A stretch of DNA of 64,000 nucleotides from positions 69,319 to 133,318 of the forward strand of contig CALVKQ010000004.1 in NCBI GenBank assembly GCA_944332815.1, given 5' to 3'. This DNA comes from an uncultured Clostridia bacterium (GTDB lineage: Bacteria > Bacillota > Clostridia > Christensenellales > CAG-917). Below, in pieces: positions 10,381-40,644 of this stretch. Under the pieces are notes generated by a model. It was not told the DNA's origin and made no database searches. It saw only the letters and a list, made by a program, of their open reading frames with translations. Within the stretch, counting starts at the first letter, position 1. Each line of letters begins with the position of its first letter. The position numbers were made by a program, and so were the translations under genes.

Positions 10381-10760
10381 AATTTCCGTAAATAAAATTT
10401 CCCCGCATCGGGGAGGAGGAGCTGCAGTCCCCTGACATGGGAATATTGTTCCCCCACCTTCCCTTCGGGCTTTCCTCCCCCACTCGGTAAGAGTTCAGCC
10501 CCCCTAAAATGCGGGATATACTTTCCGTCCATTTTGATAAAGTTTTAGTATCGCATAGAGATAATCAAGCGGCGAACAGAATAAACTAAACATCGCTCGC
10601 GGGGAGAGGAAGGCGACTCGACGCGCACGGCGCCCGTGTCTACTTAATTATCCGTCTGGCTTGCGAGGTCGCATTTCGCGCCGCGGCGTTCACGCGGCGG
10701 CAACGCCGCCTGTGAACGCTTGGGTGAGCGGCGCGTAATTCCGTCTTCGAAAGAGAAACG
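10381..10760 (-). repeat. Partial inverted copy of the modular hairpin-repeat family also seen at 28336-29305 and 39807-40644 (G-rich module plus the ACGCGCCGC hairpin module; lacks the 250-nt core)
   Basis: The reverse complement contains ttcgaagacggaattACGCGCCGCtcacccaa...GCGGCGCG and ccgagtgggggagga..cccgaagggaaggtgggggaacaatattcccatgtcaggggactgc. Both match modules in the other two loci. Confidence 0.7.
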
Positions 10761-10813
10761 TCGCGTTCGAGGCGAACGACCGTATTTTTGCGAGGCGAAG
10801 AGCAGGCGCAGGT

Positions 10814-11093
10814 ATGCCAGACCGGAATAATACGAACCGGGTCCTGCGCCGCCGATTTCCGCATGAACCGCGTCATTCGCCTTGCTAATACGATGGGGTA
10901 TTAGCGGCACCGACTTCCTTGTTCAATCAAAAATCGGCTGGCGCAGAACTGCTCGCACCTCAGAGCAAGAGATTTTCGGATGATTGTGTACAGGCGGAAC
11001 GCAGGCAATAGTATACATATTGGCAAGGTTCGGCTGTGCAAAAGCGCCGAAAAGAATTGCTCCGAGGCAGGTTCGTATAATTCCGGTCTGGCA
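10814..11093 (+). mobile_element. MITE-like non-autonomous element, copy 1 (280 bp, 25-nt terminal inverted repeats, no ORF)
   Basis: Left end ATGCCAGACCGGAATAATACGAACC; right end GGTTCGTATAATTCCGGTCTGGCAT. It aligns along its whole length with 33480..33760. Confidence 0.7.
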
Positions 11094-11103
11094 TAAAAGC
11101 AAG

Positions 11104-11155: not shown

Positions 11156-14100
11156 TCATCCCGTTGCCCGCAGCGCTTTGACAGGGTCTTTGCGTGCGGC
11201 GGCGATCGCCGGCACCAACCCCGAAAGTACGGTCAGCACGATACTCAGCGCCACCAACAGCAGAGCGTGCAGGGGGTTGAGCACCGCGAAACTCGTGGGA
11301 GCCTGCGGCGCGAGCGAGGCTATCCAGGCGTTTATCGGGAAGTCGATTATCCACGCCAGGAACACGCCCAATATGCCTGCCGTGGCGCCTATGATCGCCG
11401 TTTCCGCATTGAAGAGGTTGCTGACGTCCAGTTTTCTTGCGCCGATGGAGCGCAGCACGCCTATCTCCGTCGTGCGTTCGAGCACGGAAACGTAGGTTAT
11501 GATGGCTATCATGACGCTGGACACCACCAGGGATATCGCGGCGAAAGCTATGAGTATGTAGGACACGATGTCCACCACCTGGGAGAGCAGGTCGGAGATC
11601 ATGCCTGCGGAGTCGGTGTACTGGACGGACATCCCGGGGTATTGCTCGTTCCACGCGTCGAGATAGGCGCAGATCTGATCTTTTGCCTCGAAGGAGGTCG
11701 GATAGAGATACGCTCCCGTCGGGGTGTCGGAGCCGCCCAAGCCCTTTATCATGTCCTCATAGGAACTGTCTATCAATGCGAGTATGGACGTGCCGCTGAG
11801 CTGGAAGCCGCCGATGTCTATGTTCAGTTCGGGCAGCATCTCGCGCAGCGCGTCGTCGGAGAGATACTCGGAAAGGTCTATCTCCATCCCACCGAACTGC
11901 AATTTCATGTTCTGCACGGTTTTAAGCAGATTGGAGATGGACCCGGCGTTGCGCATGGCGTCTATCTGTTCTGCGGTGAGGAAACTTTCAAGAGTAGTGC
12001 CTTCGTTGAACATTCCGCCGAGGTCGCCGGGCAGTGTGCTGAGGTCGAGAGTGGTCAGCATATCCACCATTTCGCTCACGACTTCACGTTCGCTCATCCC
12101 GAAGCCCTCTATGAGGGACACGATCTGATCGAAGTTGAAGGAGAAGGGGGTGCCCGTGATGACGTTCACGTTGGTGAAAGTCTGCTGATATTTGACTATT
12201 TCGGACTGCATGGAGTCGTCCAGGAAGAGCTGTACGAGGTCCTCCGTGTAAGCGACGCCGGTTTGGAGCAGGGGGGCGAGGATGCCCTGTTTCACGCGCA
12301 GGACGCCGACTATCGTGACCGTGAAGTTCTCATCTTCGTCGTAGGTCGCGAAGTTCTGATTGTAAGTCGCCTGCATATTGCTCTTCATGGAGCCGTTTTC
12401 GTCAAAGAGCTCGTCTGCGCTCACGAAACCGTTCGCAGGGTCGCCGTCCACGTAAGCGTCGCTCGGCACTTTGTAGTAGTTATTATTGCCGACCACGGTG
12501 ATCTCGGTGCCCAGGATATCGTCGAAGTTTACGGGCAGATAGCCGCCGTTGCCGTCCTCTTCGAGGGGTATGCCCAGCGCTTCCAGAATGGAGTAGTCGA
12601 TCATGTTGTAGCTGTTGATGACCAGCACCGCGGAACGCGCCTTATTGCCGTTGTAATCCTCGCCGTCCTCGTAGGTCTGTCCGAGGATCCCGTTTGCGAC
12701 TTCGTCGCCCGGATAGCCGCCTGCCTCTATGGTGAACTGTTCCAGCATGAAGTCGTCCCAGAGCAGCTTCTGCCAGCCGATGGGGTTTGAAGACATCCCC
12801 ATGGAGGACATCGCGTCCCCGAGGAAGGAGGAGTTGGAGGGTGGGATGAAGGTGTAATCGTCGTTGGAGCTGCCTTCGCCCGTCTTTATGAGCAGAGGGA
12901 TGCCCACGCCGTAGCTGTATCTGATGGCGTTCAGCGTGCCGGGCAGCTCATCGGGTATGGCTTGGACGTATTTCATGTATTCGTCCGTGAGCACGTTCAC
13001 GCCGAAGTCTATCCCTTCCAGCCCCATCAGCCCGGAGGGTTTGTAGGGGGTGACTTCATCGGATTCGGGGAACTGCGGACCGTCGCCCGTCTGTATCTCC
13101 ATGTTCATGAGGGAGTCGATGTCGAGGTCCACGCCCACGGAGTTGACGGTGAGGGGCATGCTGGAAAGTATGCTCCCTTCCAGGTCTTTCATATAGAGGT
13201 CAAAGCCGTTGGAGAGGGAGAGCACCAGCGCGATGCCTATGATGCCTATGCTGCCTGCAAAAGCGGTGAGGAAAGTCCTTGTGCGTTTGGTGATGAGGTT
13301 GCGCGCGGACAGCGAAAGCGCGGTGAAGAAGGACATGGAAGTGCGTTCCTTCTTCTCGCGTTTGGGCTTGCCGCTGTGCTTTTTGACCTTGACGGGAGTT
13401 TCGGGGGAGAGCACCGCGACGAATTTATCTTCGGGAGAGGGCTCCGCGGACTCCGCGTCGGCGTTTCCGCCTTCCTCCGCCGCATATTTAGCCGCAGCTT
13501 CTTCCTCCGTCTGCCCTTCGCTCACGGAAGCGTCGTTCATAGTCAGGGCGGAGGGCGCCGCGTCGTCCGTGGTGGCGGTGGCTTCCTCTATGACCGGGTT
13601 TTCGGACATTTTGCCCTTTTTCTTTTTGCTTTTTTGCTTTTTGTCGGTTTCGATGTTCTCGGGCTTGCTTTCCTCTTTGACGGCGGTTTCCGCCATGACA
13701 GCCCCGTTTTCCTCCTCTTCGGACTCGCTGTGCGCGATGTATTCCTCCAAAGGAGTGACGTTCTCCTCCGCCATGGGAGTGACGGGGGCGAGGATGGTGG
13801 GCATACCGTCGTAAGGATTGCTGTCCGCGATGACTTCGCCGTCCATCAGCTCGATGATACGGGTGGAGTAACGCTTGGCAAGCTCCGGATTATGCGTGAC
13901 CATGATGACGAGCCTGTCGTCCGCGATCTCCTGCAAAAGATCCATGACCTGTTCGGAGGTCTTGGTGTCCAGCGCGCCGGTGGGCTCGTCCGCGAGGATT
14001 ATCTCGGGATTGTTGACGATGGCGCGCGCGATCGCGACGCGCTGCATCTGACCGCCCGACATCTGGTTGGGCTTCTTTTTGAGCTGACCGCCCAGCCCCA

Positions 14101-14485
14101 CGCGTTCCAACGCTTCGGTGGCGAGCTTTCTCTTTTTCTTTTTGGACACGCCCGAAATGGTGAGCGCAAGCTCTACGTTCTGAAGCACGTTGAGATGGGG
14201 GATGAGGTTGTACGACTGGAAAATAAAGCCGACGGAGCGGTTGCGGTAAGCGTCCCAATCCCTGGAACGGAACTCTTTTGTGGACTTGTCGTTGATGATG
14301 AGGTCGCCGTCCGTGTAGCGGTCCAGCCCACCGATGATGTTGAGAAGGGTGGTCTTGCCGCAGCCGGAGGGACCGAGGATGGAAACGAATTCGCTCTTGC
14401 GGAAGTTGAGGCTGACCCCTTTGACCGCATGGACGACGGAATCCGCCATTTTGTAGTCCTTGATGATGTTGACGAGTTTAAGCAT
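11156..14485 (-). CDS. Fused ABC transporter: N-terminal ATPase, acidic/lysine-rich linker, MacB/FtsX-type permease with a large extracytoplasmic domain (1109 aa)
   Basis: Walker A GPSGCGKTT, signature MSGGQMQRVAIARA, Walker B ILADEPTGALD. The C-terminal FtsX motif is RTTEIGVLRSIGARK followed by TM helices. Confidence 0.9.
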   Translation of the reverse strand: MLKLVNIIKDYKMADSVVHAVKGVSLNFRKSEFVSILGPSGCGKTTLLNIIGGLDRYTDGDLIINDKSTKEFRSRDWDAYRNRSVGFIFQSYNLIPHLNVLQNVELALTISGVSKKKKRKLATEALERVGLGGQLKKKPNQMSGGQMQRVAIARAIVNNPEIILADEPTGALDTKTSEQVMDLLQEIADDRLVIMVTHNPELAKRYSTRIIELMDGEVIADSNPYDGMPTILAPVTPMAEENVTPLEEYIAHSESEEEENGAVMAETAVKEESKPENIETDKKQKSKKKKGKMSENPVIEEATATTDDAAPSALTMNDASVSEGQTEEEAAAKYAAEEGGNADAESAEPSPEDKFVAVLSPETPVKVKKHSGKPKREKKERTSMSFFTALSLSARNLITKRTRTFLTAFAGSIGIIGIALVLSLSNGFDLYMKDLEGSILSSMPLTVNSVGVDLDIDSLMNMEIQTGDGPQFPESDEVTPYKPSGLMGLEGIDFGVNVLTDEYMKYVQAIPDELPGTLNAIRYSYGVGIPLLIKTGEGSSNDDYTFIPPSNSSFLGDAMSSMGMSSNPIGWQKLLWDDFMLEQFTIEAGGYPGDEVANGILGQTYEDGEDYNGNKARSAVLVINSYNMIDYSILEALGIPLEEDGNGGYLPVNFDDILGTEITVVGNNNYYKVPSDAYVDGDPANGFVSADELFDENGSMKSNMQATYNQNFATYDEDENFTVTIVGVLRVKQGILAPLLQTGVAYTEDLVQLFLDDSMQSEIVKYQQTFTNVNVITGTPFSFNFDQIVSLIEGFGMSEREVVSEMVDMLTTLDLSTLPGDLGGMFNEGTTLESFLTAEQIDAMRNAGSISNLLKTVQNMKLQFGGMEIDLSEYLSDDALREMLPELNIDIGGFQLSGTSILALIDSSYEDMIKGLGGSDTPTGAYLYPTSFEAKDQICAYLDAWNEQYPGMSVQYTDSAGMISDLLSQVVDIVSYILIAFAAISLVVSSVMIAIITYVSVLERTTEIGVLRSIGARKLDVSNLFNAETAIIGATAGILGVFLAWIIDFPINAWIASLAPQAPTSFAVLNPLHALLLVALSIVLTVLSGLVPAIAAARKDPVKALRATG

Positions 14486-24698: not shown

Positions 24699-27665
24699 AT
24701 GCTTAAACTGGTCAATATCACAAAGGAATACAAGACGGAGGAGGAGAGCGTTCTCGCGTTGCGAGGCGTTTCCATCGAGTTCCGCAAGAGCGAATTCGTT
24801 TCCATCCTCGGACCCTCCGGCTGCGGCAAGACCACCCTTCTCAACATCGTGGGCGGGCTGGACCGCTACACGGACGGCGACATACAGGTGGACGGCGTGT
24901 CCACCAAAAAATACCGCGATGAGGATTGGGACACTTACCGCAACAGGCGCATAGGTTTCGTCTTCCAGTCCTACAACCTCATCCCTCATATGACAGTGCT
25001 CAAAAACGTGCAACTCAGCCTCACTCTCGCAGGCGTTCCCAAGGAGGAGGGCAGAGAGAGGGCGTTGGAAGCGCTGCGCAAAGTCGGGCTGGAAAAGCAG
25101 GCGAAGAAAAAGCCTAACCAGATGTCGGGCGGTCAGATGCAGCGCGTCGCGATAGCGCGCGCCCTGGTCAACGACCCCGACATCATCCTCGCGGACGAAC
25201 CCACCGGCGCGCTGGACAGCGAGTCGGGCGTGCAGGTCATGGAGCTGCTCAAAGAGGTCGCGCGCGACAGGCTGGTCGTCATGGTCACCCACAACGGACA
25301 GCTCGCGGACGAGTACAGCACGCGTATCATCAACCTGAAAGACGGTGAAGTGGTGGGCGACACGATGCCTTACGACAGCGCCGCCGAGAGCGCCGCGCAA
25401 GCGAGCGAAATGACGGAAAACGGCGTTCAAACTGCCGAAAACGGTGTTTCAGCCGCAGAAACGGGCAATTACGCGGCATATGACGAAAACGGTATGCCTT
25501 ACGGCGACGGCGAATATTACACCGGCGAGGCAGGCGATTACGCGGCATATGACGAGAACGGCGCGCCCTACGGCGACGGAGCTTATTACGGTGAGAACGG
25601 CGCGCCCTACGGCGACGGGGCATATTACGACGAAAACGCCGCCGCGCAGCAGAGCGCAGAACAGGCGTCCCCCGAGCCTCCCAAAAAGAAGAATATATTC
25701 GCGAGGATAGGGGATAAGATCCGCGCTTTCCGCAAACGCGAGAAGTCCTATATGTCCATAGGCACGGCGGTCAATCTGTCCTGGACCAACCTGCTCAGCA
25801 AGAAGGGGCGCACTTTGCTCACCTCCATCGCAGGCAGCATAGGCATCATCGGCATCGTGGTCGTGCTCGCGCTCTCCAACGGCGTGAACGGTTACATCTC
25901 CGCGCTGGAAGAGAACGCGCTTTCGCAATACCCCATCACCATAAACGACCGCGACGTGTCTTTGCAGAACGTCATGAACACAGTTTTAGGCGGTTCCTCC
26001 GGGGTAGGGGAACAGTATCCCGACAGCGGCGAGCTGGTGGTAGGCGACGTGCTGGGCTCTCTGTTTGCGGAGATGGACGAGATATTCGCCGAAAACGACC
26101 TTAAAACTTTCAAAGCCTACATCGAGGATAACTTCGACGATTCGTTGGGCGTGGTAAAGTACGGCTACGGCACCACTCTCAACATCTACACCGAGGACCC
26201 GAAATCTCCCGATGAAAATTACATGAAGGTCAATCCCTTCACGGACGCCATGGGCTCCTTCCTCCCGACCGAGGGTGACTTCGCCGCGATTACGAGCATG
26301 GCGGAGGCGTTCACCGCGTCCTGGGATCAGATCAGCACCAATCAGGAACTTTTGGAGCGTCAGTACGACGTTGTAGCCGGCAGGTGGCCGGACCAGGATT
26401 CCGCAAACGAGATAATCGTGGTCATGGACAGCTACAACACCATCCCCGACTTCGGTATGTTCATGCTGGGGCTGCGTTCGCAGGACGACCTTGTGAATCT
26501 TATCAACTCCGCGCTCGATAAGGACGATGAGGAAACTCAAAAGCTGTTGGAAGAGTTTTACAAGCCCATCAAGCTGGAAGGGGACGGCGGATTGGTCGGC
26601 AAGAAGTATTACGTCATCACCGACGCGGACTATTTCATCGAAGACGAAAGTTCCTCCTTCGGCTATACCGAAACGGACAGGGGAGCTACGGACAAGGAAA
26701 CCGTGGACGCCGTGTTCGAAGCCAACGGGGTGCAGGAGCTGGAGATAGTCGGCGTCGTGCGTCCCAAACCCGGTGTGACCGTCACCTCCATCAACGGATA
26801 TGTCGGCTACACGGAGGCGCTCACCCTCGCCATGCTGGAAAAGGCGGAGTCCCACCCCATCGTCGAAATGATGAAGGAAGCCGCGCTCTCCATGGCGGCG
26901 GACGATGAGGATAAGGCAAACGGCATCGTCACCGCGGACAATTTCAGAGGCTGGGTATCTCCCGTCGCTCTGAAACAGGCAGTCAGCGTTCCCGGCGCGT
27001 TGTTCGGCGACGAGAAGAAGGTCGTCACGGTGGGCACGCGCTTGGGCAGGGATGATTACGCCGCTTATGTCGCGATAATGCGCGCGGTAGGTGTGGCGGA
27101 TCCTGCCTCGCCGCAGTCCATATCCTTCTACGCTAACTCATTCGACCATAAAGCGGAGATAGAGCAGTTCATACAGACCTACATCGACACCACGGGCAAC
27201 GACTTGAAGTACACCGATCAGCTGGCGATCATGATGGCGTTCGTGGAGCAGCTCAGTTCCACTGTCACGCAGGTGCTGGTGGGCTTCGCGGCGATATCCT
27301 TAATAGTGTCCACCATCATGATAGCCATCATCATCTACACCTCCGTGCTCGAACGCAGGAAGGAGATAGGCGTGCTGCGAAGTTTGGGTGCGCGAAAGAA
27401 GGATATTGCGCGCGTGTTCATTTCTGAGTCCGCCATCCTTGGGGCGTACTCGGGCGCGATAGGCATCGTGGTCGCGGTGGCGTTCTCCTTCGCAGGCAGC
27501 GCGATACTGGCGGCGGTGCTGGGAATAAGCGGACTGATGAGCGTGTCGTGGTGGCAATGTCTTGTGATGTTCGCAGTCAGTGTGGCGCTCAGTATATTGG
27601 CAGGTTTCATCCCGTCGCGCATCGCGTCCAAGAAAGACCCGACAGTCGCGCTCAGGAGCGAATAA
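24699..27665 (+). CDS. Fused ABC transporter: ATPase, Tyr/Gly/Asp-repeat linker, MacB/FtsX-type permease (988 aa); paralog of 11156..14485
   Basis: The N-terminus MLKLVNITKEYK...GPSGCGKTTLLNIVGGLDRYTDGD is nearly identical to the other copy. Also present: MSGGQMQRVAIARA, ILADEPTGALD, RRKEIGVLRSLGARK. Confidence 0.9.
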   Translation: MLKLVNITKEYKTEEESVLALRGVSIEFRKSEFVSILGPSGCGKTTLLNIVGGLDRYTDGDIQVDGVSTKKYRDEDWDTYRNRRIGFVFQSYNLIPHMTVLKNVQLSLTLAGVPKEEGRERALEALRKVGLEKQAKKKPNQMSGGQMQRVAIARALVNDPDIILADEPTGALDSESGVQVMELLKEVARDRLVVMVTHNGQLADEYSTRIINLKDGEVVGDTMPYDSAAESAAQASEMTENGVQTAENGVSAAETGNYAAYDENGMPYGDGEYYTGEAGDYAAYDENGAPYGDGAYYGENGAPYGDGAYYDENAAAQQSAEQASPEPPKKKNIFARIGDKIRAFRKREKSYMSIGTAVNLSWTNLLSKKGRTLLTSIAGSIGIIGIVVVLALSNGVNGYISALEENALSQYPITINDRDVSLQNVMNTVLGGSSGVGEQYPDSGELVVGDVLGSLFAEMDEIFAENDLKTFKAYIEDNFDDSLGVVKYGYGTTLNIYTEDPKSPDENYMKVNPFTDAMGSFLPTEGDFAAITSMAEAFTASWDQISTNQELLERQYDVVAGRWPDQDSANEIIVVMDSYNTIPDFGMFMLGLRSQDDLVNLINSALDKDDEETQKLLEEFYKPIKLEGDGGLVGKKYYVITDADYFIEDESSSFGYTETDRGATDKETVDAVFEANGVQELEIVGVVRPKPGVTVTSINGYVGYTEALTLAMLEKAESHPIVEMMKEAALSMAADDEDKANGIVTADNFRGWVSPVALKQAVSVPGALFGDEKKVVTVGTRLGRDDYAAYVAIMRAVGVADPASPQSISFYANSFDHKAEIEQFIQTYIDTTGNDLKYTDQLAIMMAFVEQLSSTVTQVLVGFAAISLIVSTIMIAIIIYTSVLERRKEIGVLRSLGARKKDIARVFISESAILGAYSGAIGIVVAVAFSFAGSAILAAVLGISGLMSVSWWQCLVMFAVSVALSILAGFIPSRIASKKDPTVALRSE
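25468..25628 (+). repeat. In-frame tandem DNA repeat inside the ABC linker, encoding (D)YAAYDENG(M/A)PYGDG(E/A)YY units
   Basis: attacgcggcatatgacgaRaacgg...ccNtacggcgacgg...tattac occurs at 25468..25520 and at 25537..25589. A shorter third unit lies at 25590..25628. Confidence 0.8.
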
Positions 27666-27817: not shown

Positions 27818-28339
27818 ATGGCTGAAAAAATCAAAAAAACCGTCAAGCCTACCGACAGCAACGTCATGCTGTGTCTGCTGTTCCTCGTCCTCGGCGTGCT
27901 GTTCGTGTGGCAGGGGGCAGGCATCATCGGCACCGCAATGATGATAATCGGCGTCATCCTGACCGTGCTTGGGCTCTTTGAACTCTTCAATCAGAATTGG
28001 ATCATGGGCATCATAGAGGTGATCCTGGGCGTCGCGTTGATAGTCATCGCAGCGACCGTCGGGGCACAGATCATGCTCCTTCTGCTCGGCATCGCCATCC
28101 TGCTCTTTGCCGTGATAGTGTGCGTCCTGGGGTTCAAGAACTTCAAAGGCATGGCGACCGTCGCCAAAGTCCTCTTCATCCTCACCATTCTGCTCGCCGT
28201 CACCGTAGGCGTCCTCTTCATCGTCGCCTACGTCGAGGTCCCCCAAGGTCTGTTCATCGCCATCGGCGCCATAAGCCTTGCCGTCGGAGTGGTGATGTTG
28301 GTGAAGGCTGCGTTGACCAGCGGTCGCAAAACCGTCTAA
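27818..28339 (+). CDS. Multi-pass small membrane protein (DUF308/HdeD-like appearance)
   Basis: 173 aa, almost entirely hydrophobic helices; RBS-like gaggtga lies upstream. Confidence 0.7.
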   Translation: MAEKIKKTVKPTDSNVMLCLLFLVLGVLFVWQGAGIIGTAMMIIGVILTVLGLFELFNQNWIMGIIEVILGVALIVIAATVGAQIMLLLLGIAILLFAVIVCVLGFKNFKGMATVAKVLFILTILLAVTVGVLFIVAYVEVPQGLFIAIGAISLAVGVVMLVKAALTSGRKTV

Positions 28340-29305
28340 ACGGCGCTATTTGGCGCAGAACTTTGTCAACGCCCTTGTCGTGGATGCTCACGTACGTCAA
28401 TGTACGCTCCGCCTCCCGACAAGGGCGTTTTCGCGTTCTGCATCCAAATATCGCCGTTTAGTACAGGGGGAGTTGAAATTATTTTTCCAAACCCTATTCG
28501 AAGACGGGTAAATATCCCATACCCCACGCACACTTATTCGGAGCGTGCTTGATAAATTACTCTCTCATTCAAAGACGTAATTACGCGCCGCTCAGCCAAA
28601 CTTGCACCGTGGGCGAATTTTCGCTCACGCTTGCAAGTCGCGGCGCGTTCAACCCCGTACACGATGCGCACTTATTCGGAGCGGAGCCGCAACAGGCGGC
28701 GACCGTGTGAGTGCCGAGCGCTAGACGAATAGTGCGCCGGCAATGCGCCACTCTCTTCGCGCAGCGGGCGCATTGCAAGCGGCATAACATGGCGGCTCCG
28801 TAAAGGTGCCGTCCTCGGAAGCAATCGTGCGCGAGCGCCGAAGGTTTCCCCCAAAATGGTGGGTTCCCTTTTAAGGGGGAACGATTTTGGGGGAAACCCG
28901 AAGGAAGGGGGCAAACAATACTTAAAGGTATGAGGAATGTCCCCTTTCCCCGAAGGGAAGGAGGGGGGCTGTACTCCCATGTCAGGGGACGCCCCCAATT
29001 AAACTTTACTCCACACATGTACTGGAGTAGAGCGCTCTTTCTTAATTCGGGACAAACGGGGACGGGGCAAAAATGTTCAAATGTGGGCATGCAACCCCAC
29101 ATCTGAACATTTGCGCACCCAAACCCCACAAGTGGGTACCCCTGCTTTACCCCGTCCCCGTTGTGTCCCAACGCGTTCCTGTGCCGGTATAACGTGAAGC
29201 ATGAGTGTGCGTACCTGAACCCGACACTCATTATTCGAAGACGTAATCGCTCACTTACTCGGAGTGCGCTTGATCAATAATTCTCTTTTCAAAGGCGGAA
29301 TAAAG
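28336..29305 (+). repeat. Modular hairpin-repeat locus B: stop-codon-proximal 126-nt palindrome, ~75-nt unit, ACGCGCCGC hairpin, 250-nt core, G-rich module, a large branched hairpin and a terminal unit
   Basis: About 970 nt between convergent genes with no credible ORF. It is co-linear with 39807..40644 and partly with 10381..10760 (inverted). Confidence 0.8.
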
Positions 29306-29329
29306 CCCCATCCCTCAACGACGACGGGG

Positions 29330-30193
29330 TCAGTGTCTGGCTTCGTCGGGGTGAGGGCCGAGGCGGCCTATTCGGGATACGGCGTCGAGAGCGGCGAGGT
29401 CGTCAGCGTCGAGGGAGAAGGAAAAGACGTCGGCGTTTTCGCGTATGCGCGACGGTGTTGCGGATTTGGGGAGGGGGAGCACCCCGTGTTCCAGGCAAAA
29501 ACGCACCAGCACCTGCGCTTCCGTCCTGCCGTGTTTTTGAGCCACTGCGGCGAGGACGGGATGCCCGAAAGCCTTGCCGCGGCAGAGGGGCGCCCAGCCT
29601 TCGACGACGATGCCGTTAGCCTGCGAGAAGGCGACGGCTTCCGTTTGATCGGCGTCGGTGAAACCGAAGTGGAACTCCACCTGATTTACCATAGGAGGCA
29701 CTTTACATTCACCTAAAAGTACGTTCAAGTGTGTTTTCAGGCAATTGCACACGCCGATGGCACGCACGCGTCCGTCGGCATAAAGACGTTCGAGCGCGCG
29801 CCACGTGTCAAGGAAACGTGAGGGGTATTCCGCCTTATAGTCCTTGGTGATAGGCCAATGCACAAGGTAGAGGTCAAGGGTGTCTAGCCCGAGTTTTTTT
29901 GCGGAGGCGTCGAAGGCGGCGAGAGTGGAGTCGTAGCCTTGGTGGGTGTTCCACACTTTGGTGGTGACGAATATCTCTTCGCGCGGCAAGCCGCTTTCGG
30001 ACACGGCTTTTCCGACGCTTTCCTCGTTGAAGTAAAACTCCGCGGTGTCGATGTGGCGATAGCCTGCGGCAAGGGCGGCGAGCACGCTCTCGGTGCAGAC
30101 GTCGCCGTCGGGGGTCTTATAGGTGCCGAAGCCCACGCAGGGGATGCGCACTCCGTTAGAGAGGGTGAAGCAGTCGGTGAGAGAGTTGTGCAT
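29330..30193 (-). CDS. Aldo/keto reductase (2,5-diketo-D-gluconate reductase-like)
   Basis: FTLSNGVRIPCVGFGTYK...AGYRHIDTAEFYFNEESVG...LDLYLVHWP. Confidence 0.9.
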   Translation of the reverse strand: MHNSLTDCFTLSNGVRIPCVGFGTYKTPDGDVCTESVLAALAAGYRHIDTAEFYFNEESVGKAVSESGLPREEIFVTTKVWNTHQGYDSTLAAFDASAKKLGLDTLDLYLVHWPITKDYKAEYPSRFLDTWRALERLYADGRVRAIGVCNCLKTHLNVLLGECKVPPMVNQVEFHFGFTDADQTEAVAFSQANGIVVEGWAPLCRGKAFGHPVLAAVAQKHGRTEAQVLVRFCLEHGVLPLPKSATPSRIRENADVFSFSLDADDLAALDAVSRIGRLGPHPDEARH

Positions 30194-32555: not shown

Positions 32556-33496
32556 TGCGCATCTCCGTCCATCCGCTCTTTTACGCGCTTGCCGTGCTGC
32601 TCGTGTTGTTCGGGCAGGCGGCGGCGTTCGTCTGGACTTTTGTCGCCGTATGCCTGCACGAACTGGGGCACGCGGCGGCGGCGCGTCTTCGCGGTTACGT
32701 CCCAAAGACGCTCACTCTCATGCCGTACGGCGCGATGATGAGTGCGGAGGAAGAGATGGACGGGCGCTCCTGCGTGCTGGTGGGGCTCGCCGGTCCTGCC
32801 GCCAATCTGCTTTGCGCCGCCCTGATACTCGCGTTGTGGTGGGTCTTTCCTGCCGCATATCCTTTCACGCGCGTGTTTTTGGCAGCCAATCTCGCGATCG
32901 CGCTTTTCAATCTGCTCCCCGTCTATCCGCTGGACGGTTCCAGAGTGCTGACGGGGCTTGCGTCCAACCGCATGAAAGCCGTTAAACGTATGCAGGCGGC
33001 AGGCATCGCGGTGAGCGTGGCGCTCTTTGTCCTGTTCATCATTTCCTTCATCATGAAAGCCGCCGCGTTTACCCTCGGGATAACGGCGGTATTCCTGTTT
33101 TCGGGGGCGGCGTTCGGGGCGAAGCGCGACACCTATGCGAGCGTGCTCGCGGCAGGTTGCAAAAACTACCGCGCAGGCGTGTGCGAACGGAGCGTGATAG
33201 TGAGTGCGGACACCCCTCTCGTCAGATTGTTCGGGTACGTGGACGGGCGCAACGTCACGCGTTTCAGAGTGGTGGAGGAACACGCCGACGGCGCCCCTCC
33301 CGACGAGGTATGCGTGCTCACGGAAGGAGAATTGCGCGGCATCGCGAAAGAGGGCAGACTTTCGCGCACCTTGCGCGAATGCGTCGCGGCAGGGAAGGGC
33401 TCCTCGCCCGAACTCCCTCCGTCCGCCATCTCCCTTTCCGAAAACGATGGCGGAGCGAACGATGCCGACCATGTCCGGCATGCCAGACCGAAATAA
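32552..33496 (+). CDS. M50 site-2 metalloprotease, SpoIVFB-like
   Basis: HExxH (LHELGHAAAA) and the NLLPVYPLDGSRV motif. Its position downstream of min genes matches Bacillus/Clostridium spoIVF. The last 5 codons and the stop lie inside the MITE-like element. Confidence 0.8.
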   Translation: MMRISVHPLFYALAVLLVLFGQAAAFVWTFVAVCLHELGHAAAARLRGYVPKTLTLMPYGAMMSAEEEMDGRSCVLVGLAGPAANLLCAALILALWWVFPAAYPFTRVFLAANLAIALFNLLPVYPLDGSRVLTGLASNRMKAVKRMQAAGIAVSVALFVLFIISFIMKAAAFTLGITAVFLFSGAAFGAKRDTYASVLAAGCKNYRAGVCERSVIVSADTPLVRLFGYVDGRNVTRFRVVEEHADGAPPDEVCVLTEGELRGIAKEGRLSRTLRECVAAGKGSSPELPPSAISLSENDGGANDADHVRHARPK

Positions 33497-33760
33497 TACG
33501 AACCAGGTTCAGCGCCGCCGATTTCCGCCTGAACCGCGTCATTCGCCTTGCTAATACAGTCAAGTATTAGCTGCAGCGACTTCCTTGCTCAGCCAAAAAT
33601 CGGCGGGCGCGGAACTGCTCGCACCTCAGAGCAAAAGATTTTCGGATGATGTTGCACGGGCGGAACGCAGGCAATAGTATATATATTGGCAAGGTTCGGC
33701 TGTGCAAAAGCGCCGAAAAGAATTGCTCCGAGGCTGGTTCGTATTATTCCGGTCTGGCAT
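33480..33760 (+). mobile_element. MITE-like non-autonomous element, copy 2 (281 bp)
   Basis: ATGCCAGACCGAAATAATACGAACC ... GGTTCGTATTATTCCGGTCTGGCAT; co-linear with 10814..11093. Confidence 0.7.
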
Positions 33761-39806: not shown

Positions 39807-40644
39807 CTAAACGCCGCTATTTGGCGAATAGCTTTGTCAGCCTCGCATCTCCGACCGCTTATGTACGAAAGTACACCGCGCGTCCGGATATGCGAGGCTT
39901 TCGCGCTCTTCATCCAAATATCGGCGTTTAGACCGTTGGGGGGTATTTTTCTAAACCCTATTCGAAGACGGAACAATGCCCCAATTCCTCACGCGCGCTT
40001 ATCGGGAGCGTGCTCAAATACACTCTACACTCATTCGAAGAAAGAACTATATATATCCCCATACTCCACGCGCACTCTTTCGGAGCGTGCTTAATTAAAT
40101 TTATCCTTCATTCGAAGACGGAATAACGCGCCGCTCAGCCAAACTTGCACCGTGGGCGAGCATCGCCCATGCTTGCAAGTCGCGGCGCGTCCCAACCCCG
40201 TACACGACGCGCACTTATTCGGAGCGGAGCCGCAACAGGCGGCGACCGTGTGAGTGCCGAGCGCTAGACGAATAGTGCGCCGGCAATGCGCCACTCTCTT
40301 CGCGCAGCGGGCGCATTGCAAGCGGCATAACATGGCGGCTCCGTAAAGGTGCCGTCCTCGGAAGCAGTCGTGCGCGAGCGCCGAAGGTTTCCCCAAAAAT
40401 GGTGGGTTCCCTTTTAAGGGGGAACGATTTTGGGGGAAACCCGAAGGAAGGGGGCAAACAACACTTAAATGTTAGGAGGATTGTCCTCTATTCCGAGTGG
40501 GGGAGGAGTCCCGAATGGGGCTCCCCACAAAATGCATGCATTTTGTGGGGTCCCCGGGAAGGAGGGGGCACAATACTCCCATGTCAGGGAACGCGAAACC
40601 CCCATTAAACTTTATTTTACACGCCCCCATGTCAGGGGACTGCC
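39807..40644 (+). repeat. Modular hairpin-repeat locus C: 125-nt palindrome, two ~75-nt units, ACGCGCCGC hairpin, 250-nt core, G-rich module with a perfect 28-nt palindrome
   Basis: About 840 nt between convergent genes with no credible ORF; co-linear with 28336..29305. Confidence 0.8.

Follow-up and report, generated by a model that had tools for sequence, protein, structure and literature searches.

BOX elements of Streptococcus pneumoniae are built of modules in the order boxA-(boxB)n-boxC. For the REPs and REPINs, compensated hairpin changes have been documented (PMC3116915), and in E. coli a mismatch in the stem is required for both binding and cleavage by TnpA-REP (PMC3333891). Elements of the IS200/IS605 family have their active strand on the lagging-strand template (PMC5027513), and TIRtrons carry the motif GGGGWSAS (Di Nocera et al. 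2013, PMC3733652).

Here we examine a hairpin family that recurs in a 64-kb stretch of DNA (the window, G000:C4:69319-133318) from a 1.63-Mb assembly of 17 contigs. The family is most like REP/BIME and BOX repeats, and it is not a stand-alone RNA gene. It behaves as REP/BIME, REPIN and BOX repeats do, being abundant, extragenic, located after genes, modular, strain-variable, restricted to one lineage and without a gene of its own.

Hairpin Architecture

Three copies of the hairpin are present in the window, two on the forward strand and one inverted (Table 1). All three had been claimed by the first-pass annotation, and both direct sequence and a covariance model (R1) place them where it had put them, the model scoring copy 1 at 80.3 bits (40127-40189, +), copy 2 at 84.4 bits (28584-28647, +) and copy 3 at 73.9 bits (10677-10735, -). 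Counted from the foot, the order of parts is P1, a bulge on the 5' side, P2, a C/CT internal loop, P3 and a free loop. The foot P1 is GC-only in all three copies, (A)CGCGCCGC/GCGGCGCG(T), and the 8-nt bulge, confined to the 5' side, reads TCAGCCAA in the direct copies and TCACCCAA in the inverted copy. P2 is a 7-bp helix, ACTTGCA/TGCAAGT in the direct copies versus GCGTTCA(C)/(G)TGAACGC in the inverted one; the inner helix had been called completely swapped, which overstates the case, as the inverted copy differs at three of the seven pairs, all of them compensated. A conserved 1x2 internal loop (C versus CT), overlooked in the first reading, separates P2 from the apical P3. The predicted RNA fold of each window copy agrees with this drawn structure (-39.5 to -41.3 kcal/mol, with z-scores of -5.3 to -6.0 against shuffles). 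The opposite strands fold with about equal energy, so fold energy cannot pick the strand.

Table 1. Positions of the hairpin copies and associated features in the window
Feature	Position	Strand	Description
Hairpin copy 1 (type A)	40126..40190	+	P1 ACGCGCCGC/GCGGCGCGT, bulge TCAGCCAA, P2 ACTTGCA/TGCAAGT, loop C/CT, P3 CGTGGGCG/CGCCCATG with one G.T
Hairpin copy 2 (type A)	28583..28648	+	loop AATTTT; private G.T in P3 (CGCTCAC)
Hairpin copy 3 (type B)	10676..10736	-	P2 GCGTTCA/TGAACGC, P3 GGCGGC/GCCGCC, bulge TCACCCAA
Box, copy 1	40111..40121	+	TTCGAAGACGG
Box variant, copy 2	28568..28578	+	TTCAAAGACGT
Box, copy 3	10741..10751	-	TTCGAAGACGG
Whole element 1	40110..40594	+	box, hairpin, T4-type tail with ~250-nt core and nested palindromes; end CCCATGTCAGGGAACG
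Whole element 2	28567..28992	+	box, hairpin, T4-type tail; end CCCATGTCAGGGGACG
Whole element 3	10427..10751	-	box, hairpin, T3-type tail (..GCGACCTCGCAAG..); end CCCATGTCAGGGGAC
Two small-hairpin units 5' of element 1	39956..40108	+	loop ..TTCGG/TTCGA.. is the box motif
Foot-only hairpin GCCGC-AACAG-GCGGC, core of element 1	40229..40243	+	full bulge, P2 and P3 hairpin here in other species
Foot-only hairpin GCCGC-AACAG-GCGGC, element 2	28686..28700	+	

Covariation and Constraint on the Fold

A pattern search collected 133 copies of the hairpin, 66 of them distinct, and the distinct copies were aligned (A1) and tested against the stated structure with 500 shuffles as the null. Standard pairs fill 97.6% of the cells, versus 87.3% in the shuffles. 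The covariation first noticed by eye in three copies holds up in this enlarged alignment: seven pairs show double-sided changes (144 cells versus 52 in shuffles), and the covariation score of 0.267 (0.097 shuffled) is reached by none of the 500 shuffles. In slid controls, with partners shifted by one to three columns, the score is at most 0.037. P2 occurs in three forms in the collected copies (ACTTGCA, ACTTTCA and GCGTTCA), each with its complement, and P3 in at least five, among which a step-wise path can be followed from GCGGGCG/CGCCCGC through GCGGGCG/CGCCTGC, with a G.T, to GCAGGCG/CGCCTGC.

P1 was held fixed by the search pattern, so its constancy in this set is no evidence; an unbiased look comes from the weaker R1 matches in the same loci. 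These reveal a second context for the hairpin, inside the "250-nt core" of other species, in which the bulge and the C/CT loop are identical, P2 and P3 are paired, a fourth P2 form appears (GCGCTCA/TGAGCGC), and the foot is GCCGCC/GGCGGC or GCCGC/GCGGC. At the core position this genome has the foot only, GCCGC-AACAG-GCGGC, and in one other genome this foot-only hairpin has covaried (GGCGC..GCGCC). Across species, the bulge and the 1x2 loop are retained in ~130 of the 133 copies. Three copies (G000:C1:282990-283053, L050:4694-4756 and the second hairpin of L143) have the internal loop turned into full pairing, as CC/GG or AGC/GCT.

The covarying P2 and P3, together with the second-context data, show that the distal part of the hairpin is constrained as a fold, and the inner foot, bulge and internal loop as sequence. 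The original proposal that the fold and not the sequence is under constraint thus survives for the two distal helices, with their seven double-changed pairs and G.U intermediates; it fails for the foot, bulge and internal loop, which are kept as sequence. Covariation in the hairpin does not by itself demonstrate an RNA function.

The pairing might also have arisen with no selection on the fold, from the youth of the copies, homogenisation by gene conversion and hairpin-templated repair (quasipalindrome correction) in which one arm is the template for the other. As this would lead one to expect, the copies of any one genome are almost the same and the dominant types are species-specific, and the "perfected" internal loops of the three fully paired copies are the outcome that hairpin-templated repair would produce. 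Arm-copying would, however, remove the 8-nt bulge and the 1x2 loop, yet nearly all copies keep both, and the G.T intermediates and step-wise replacement of pairs fit selection for pairing; we regard this explanation as distinctly improbable. Among the stem mismatches of the distinct sequences, G.T outnumbers A.C by 24 to 5 (10 versus 5 positions), an excess that points to the top strand as the folding strand and of which strand-biased C-to-T mutation could be a partial cause.

Composition of the Elements

The box and hairpin are the fixed opening block of genus-specific, non-coding mosaic elements of ~330-450 nt, and the hairpin never stands alone. Almost all 133 copies have the box, TTCGRAGACGG, upstream of the foot at a distance of 4-6 nt; the exceptions are L102, the one case with full flanks that lacks it, and L047, where it is cut off by a contig end. 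The same box had been reported before each window copy, which is correct for copies 1 and 3 (TTCGAAGACGG) and not for copy 2, whose box is TTCAAAGACGTAATT. The box is the loop and 3' arm of small hairpin units that stand in tandem before the elements and blur their 5' boundary.

On the 3' side, every copy is followed by a tail of ~250-400 nt belonging to one of several types, some with optional small palindromes nested within them. Most tails end in ..GGGGGAGGA..CCCGAAGGG..GGAGGGGG..CCCATGTCAGGGGACG. The right end of the element is a G-rich block plus CCCATGTCAGGGGACG, and a GGGGAC(G) motif closes each hairpin element; no hairpin resembling that of the left end is found at the right end. Hairpin types A and B each combine freely with all four tail types. 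Conversely, the hairpin stands in front of 54 of 55 tails of one type and ~95 of ~97 true matches of another, and no "empty" tail without a hairpin was found. In an all-against-all comparison of extended copies, homology starts mostly ~-20 to -30 from the hairpin start, or one unit further 5', and in 504 pairs it stops at +60 to +69, where the stem has its last base. The hairpin is the point where homology among element subtypes begins and stops.

When a full-length T3-type element was folded by consensus, covariation was found within the hairpin only, with no double changes elsewhere; a predicted closing helix from the box to the 3' end likewise has no support.

Two smaller insertions were seen in passing. 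Some T3 tails (for example L004, L030, L045 and L073) have an optional 37-nt hairpin, GTGTTTTCATAAAGGCGC..GCGCCTTTATGAAAA, which is absent from 10427-10751 in the window. A 43-nt mini-hairpin, ACCGAAGGTCCAGCGATTGTTACGCGAAGCGTCAATCGCGTC, follows GTGCCGA in some elements of this genome (for example C1:40780, C5:35313, C8:57779 and C2:250949) and at locus L134 of G009, where two stand in tandem; it resembles a very small nested insertion at a fixed target.

Copy Number, Range and Turnover

Genome-wide there are 41 copies by pattern and 42 by model R1, all intergenic and spread over 12 of the 17 contigs, a number far above chance. Many copies lie at contig ends; assembly breaks at repeats are common. 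The same model finds 9-82 copies each in seven of 11 further genomes searched in this genus (Candidatus Limadaptatus and related MAGs of uncultured Clostridia), none in the other four, and none in 49 genomes from 15 sister genera of the same family. A pattern scan of species-representative genomes returned the hairpin in MAGs labelled Candidatus Limadaptatus or "uncultured Clostridia bacterium"; a further 19 matches in unrelated GC-rich phyla have no box and were treated as chance. Plasmid and phage collections gave no match to the family. The window has no Rfam 15 match at gathering score, and at a permissive threshold 28300-29300 gave chance-level matches only (E up to 10); a tRNA/tmRNA scan was also negative. 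Its occurrence is confined to a single genus of uncultured gut Clostridia. The first-pass annotation had allowed that the module might be the terminal hairpin of a known MITE or IS family, which comes near to what is found: the hairpin forms an end of a dispersed repeat that varies between strains and belongs to no catalogued family.

Elements turn over faster than the genes adjacent to them. At a locus 3' of the same dehydrogenase gene, five species have five different mosaics, one of them without a hairpin. Among assemblies with an identical aldo-keto reductase (AKR) gene, the gap matching window positions 28340-29330 takes three mosaic forms. One of these strains retains at this locus the private variant of copy 2 (loop AATTTT, G.T in CGCTCAC), with another unit upstream, a T3 tail replacing T4 and then a second whole element. 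The hairpin has therefore stayed in place while the sequences to its left and right were exchanged. Among the loci compared, no excision footprint, empty site or target sequence was defined.

Gene Context and Orientation

Gene context was taken from a crude gene call trained on the long ORFs of the genome, with two doubtful calls near the window checked against Pfam. For the 39 copies with both neighbours called, the gaps are convergent in 17 cases, tandem in 21 and divergent in one; the genome-wide shares are 20%, 60% and 21%. The hairpin is thus enriched in convergent gaps (17/39 versus 20%, p=0.001) and depleted in divergent ones (1/39 versus 21%, p=0.003). BIMEs, which bind gyrase and IHF, resemble the elements in gene-end location, convergent-gap enrichment and mosaic make-up (PMC3333891), and the hairpin might by analogy be a double-stranded site for a nucleoid or topology protein, with the palindromic arms as half-sites. 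Against this, at least two arm sequences coexist within one genome, and both the one-arm bulge and the imbalance between G.T and A.C suggest that a single strand folds. We consider a double-stranded site very unlikely.

The hairpin is co-directional with its upstream gene in 32 of 40 copies, a figure inflated by the convergent gaps, where the relation holds by definition; among tandem-gap copies 14 are sense and 7 antisense, which is not significant. With the leading strand assigned by GC skew, 33 of 41 copies have their top strand in the leading-strand sequence (p=1e-4), as do 13 of the 17 in convergent gaps, which give no transcription cue (p=0.025), and five of the seven antisense tandem copies. 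The bias is weaker in the 8-kb loci of other species (25 versus 13 where skew is clear), and where replication and gene direction conflict the counts are 6 versus 6 in this genome and 8 versus 4 elsewhere. Hairpin orientation follows the replication strand and not transcription.

These results bear on the possibility that the hairpin works at the RNA level, the elements being transcribed by read-through from the gene upstream or from a promoter of their own and the hairpin serving as a protein-binding or nuclease-blocking domain, for example by stabilising a 3'-UTR or within a multi-copy structured noncoding RNA. The predominance of G.U-type mismatches on the top strand, the position of elements after gene ends and the constant bulge and internal loop among variable paired helices, a pattern also of protein-binding sites in RNA, would all suit such a role, and REPs have been reported as plausibly transcribed RNA elements (PMC3733652). 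Several results weigh against it. Seven of the 21 tandem-gap copies are antisense to both neighbours, and the orientation bias is still there in convergent gaps. A scan of the mosaic found no sigma-70-like promoter, and a terminator scan marked nothing at the hairpin, where the sequence after the stem (TCCC, AAAAG, AACCTG, CTAAG and similar) has no U-tract; an intrinsic terminator was rejected on the same grounds, the GC-rich stem having no U-tract after it. The family has no Rfam match, it is strain-variable and was not found in four of the 11 genus members searched, and the full-length alignment has no double changes outside the hairpin. On balance an RNA-level module seems unlikely. More specifically, the ~330-nt elements might be transcribed as a new class of multi-copy structured noncoding RNA of gut Clostridia, spreading as DNA and acting as RNA, in which the hairpin is the protein-binding domain and its foot, bulge and C/CT loop form the binding site; this we think quite unlikely. 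An RNA role could coexist with a DNA role.

The window also holds two paralogous genes for fused ABC-ATPase/FtsX-permeases (24699-27665 on the + strand and 11156-14485 on the - strand; 74% alike over 687 nt), each followed by a hairpin element on its own strand. A 284-nt repeat at 10811-11094 and 33477-33760, its two copies 91% alike, resembles a MITE and has terminal inverted repeats of 36 nt (ATGCCAGACCGAAATAATACGAACC..); one of the copies lies between the ABC-FtsX gene and hairpin element 3.

Candidate Enzymes

The assembly encodes no multicopy protein, and so no multicopy transposase, and an autonomous IS was rejected on this ground. A TnpB/IscB-type guide-RNA scheme and a retroelement were also set aside, the genome having no Cas12f/TnpB domain and no reverse transcriptase. 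Three ordinary tyrosine recombinase genes are present, and the hairpin might be a single-strand recombination site, similar to attC, for a tyrosine recombinase of the integron type: the palindrome is imperfect and has extrahelical bases, its distal structure varies and the fold is better conserved than the sequence. The stem CGCGCCGC/GCGGCGCG is, however, without RYYYAAC/GTTRRRY core sites, and the copies are scattered among ordinary genes on 12 of the 17 contigs and not in cassette arrays; sequence and distribution largely refute the attC reading, which is barely credible.

There is a single Y1 (HUH) gene in the genome, outside the window (G000:C1:120235-121068; loci L001 and L122). Its 278-aa product, with a C-terminal helix-turn-helix, matches Pfam Y1_Tnp at 50.6-53 bits and the NCBIfam model NF047646, "REP-associated tyrosine transposase", at 79.2 bits (cut-off 80), versus 21 bits for IS200. 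On both sides the gene is bracketed by nested palindromes of another family (..TTGGGGACG..) in a TIRtron-like arrangement, and the repeats flanking it have the GGGGAC(G) motif, which is near the GGGGWSAS of TIRtrons (PMC3733652), in common with the ends of hairpin elements. Orthologues (45-80% identity, with one or two in each genome) are present in seven of eight hairpin-bearing genomes and one of four hairpin-free ones (p=0.07, not significant, for genomes that are kin). R1 hairpins are near the RAYT gene in only one of 10 RAYT loci; this is in G009, the only such species, where the gene stands between two inverted hairpin elements at distances of 300-500 nt. Another GGGGAC-bearing family consists of tandem 46-47-nt units with GATTTTCGCCCGGGGACCCCG, often at contig ends (G000:C1:1-600, C1:259541-259700, C2:316425-316500 and others).

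A Model for the Hairpin

The REP-, REPIN- and BOX-like behaviour of the family, the hairpin changes documented for REPs and the strand placement of Y1 elements together lead us to see the hairpin as a strand-specific DNA hairpin that marks the end of a composite element. In full, our preferred explanation is that this strand-specific DNA hairpin forms one end of a REP/BIME-like mosaic element and is read at the replication fork in single-stranded form, with a RAYT/TIRYT protein as its candidate reader; we put its chances at about even. The fold would matter in single-stranded DNA: the top strand, mostly the lagging-strand template, would fold during replication, and a strand-specific enzyme would recognise the foot, bulge and loop, cutting and joining at the foot, or these parts would seed recombination there. 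Either process may spread and reshuffle the elements. The enzyme might be the RAYT/TIRYT-type Y1 (HUH) transposase, which as a single-copy gene is the sole candidate in the genome and whose link to the hairpin is putative. Once in place, the elements may also work in transcripts, as REPs do.

Several observations sit awkwardly with the DNA-hairpin model. The palindromes that flank the RAYT gene belong to another family, and hairpins are near it at one of 10 loci. No RAYT was found in one of the hairpin-bearing genomes, and one of those free of hairpins has it. The element lacks a matching hairpin at its right end, the strand bias is weaker in other species (25 versus 13), and the conflict cases (6 versus 6 and 8 versus 4) are not one-sided. 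Homologous recombination inside the conserved 64 nt could also set breakpoints at the borders.

These small gut Clostridia genomes, of ~1.6 Mb and without insertion sequences, give ~1% of their DNA to hairpin elements, for which model R1 is a clean and searchable marker. To our knowledge, RAYT/TIRYT-type enzymes have been studied almost only in Proteobacteria, and the hairpin offers a concrete substrate for asking whether they move or reshuffle composite elements in Firmicutes. It also sounds a caution, in that textbook covariation in a hairpin is alone no sign of a functional RNA.

Comparison with Known Systems

BOX elements are likewise non-coding repeats of modular build, in which the number of short internal units varies; they fold strongly, are intergenic and have no transposase of their own. 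The modules, the size and the host differ, and likeness in sequence is not to be expected. IS200/IS605 elements and their non-autonomous derivatives (PMC5027513) have in common with our elements an imperfect, strand-specific hairpin near one end, and the orientation bias seen here (33/41 copies, 13/17 in convergent gaps and, more weakly, 25/38 in other species) is consistent with placement on the lagging-strand template. Elements of this type have subterminal hairpins at both ends, and they insert 3' of a set tetra- or pentanucleotide and do not duplicate their target. In our family no copy carries tnpA or tnpB, the genome has no TnpB, the right end is without a matching hairpin, and a search for an empty site to compare with gave none.

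TIRtrons and their TIRYTs (PMC3733652) consist of a RAYT-like gene between long inverted repeats unrelated to GTAG REPs, with a GGGG-A-C.. motif and moderately abundant dispersed repeat families that have the same motif. The Y1 gene with its GGGGACG palindromes has this arrangement. The TIR-like repeats are, however, a neighbouring family, the hairpin elements share only their 3' GGGGAC(G) end with them, and mobilisation is putative.

The REP/BIME/REPIN repeats and RAYTs of Proteobacteria (PMC3333891, PMC3116915) come close in several respects. They too are high-copy, extragenic, imperfect palindromes after genes and in convergent gaps, form strain-variable mosaics with other motifs, and differ in sequence between types while keeping complementarity. 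A single-copy, RAYT-like Y1 gene is present in this genome too. REPs also have a conserved stem irregularity, and the need of TnpA-REP for a stem mismatch (PMC3333891) parallels the conserved bulge of the Clostridia hairpin. The differences are in size and setting. The hairpin has 58-64 nt and three helices, versus 20-40 nt and one helix in a REP; it has no GTAG tag, and in its stead a TTCGRAGACGG box 4-6 nt 5' of the foot; it does not occur in inverted doublets and does not flank the RAYT gene; and in its Clostridia host it makes up one end of a ~330-nt element rather than a complete unit. Because membership in the REPs fails on size, tag and RAYT flanking, we file the family as a variant of this kind of repeat and not as a REP.
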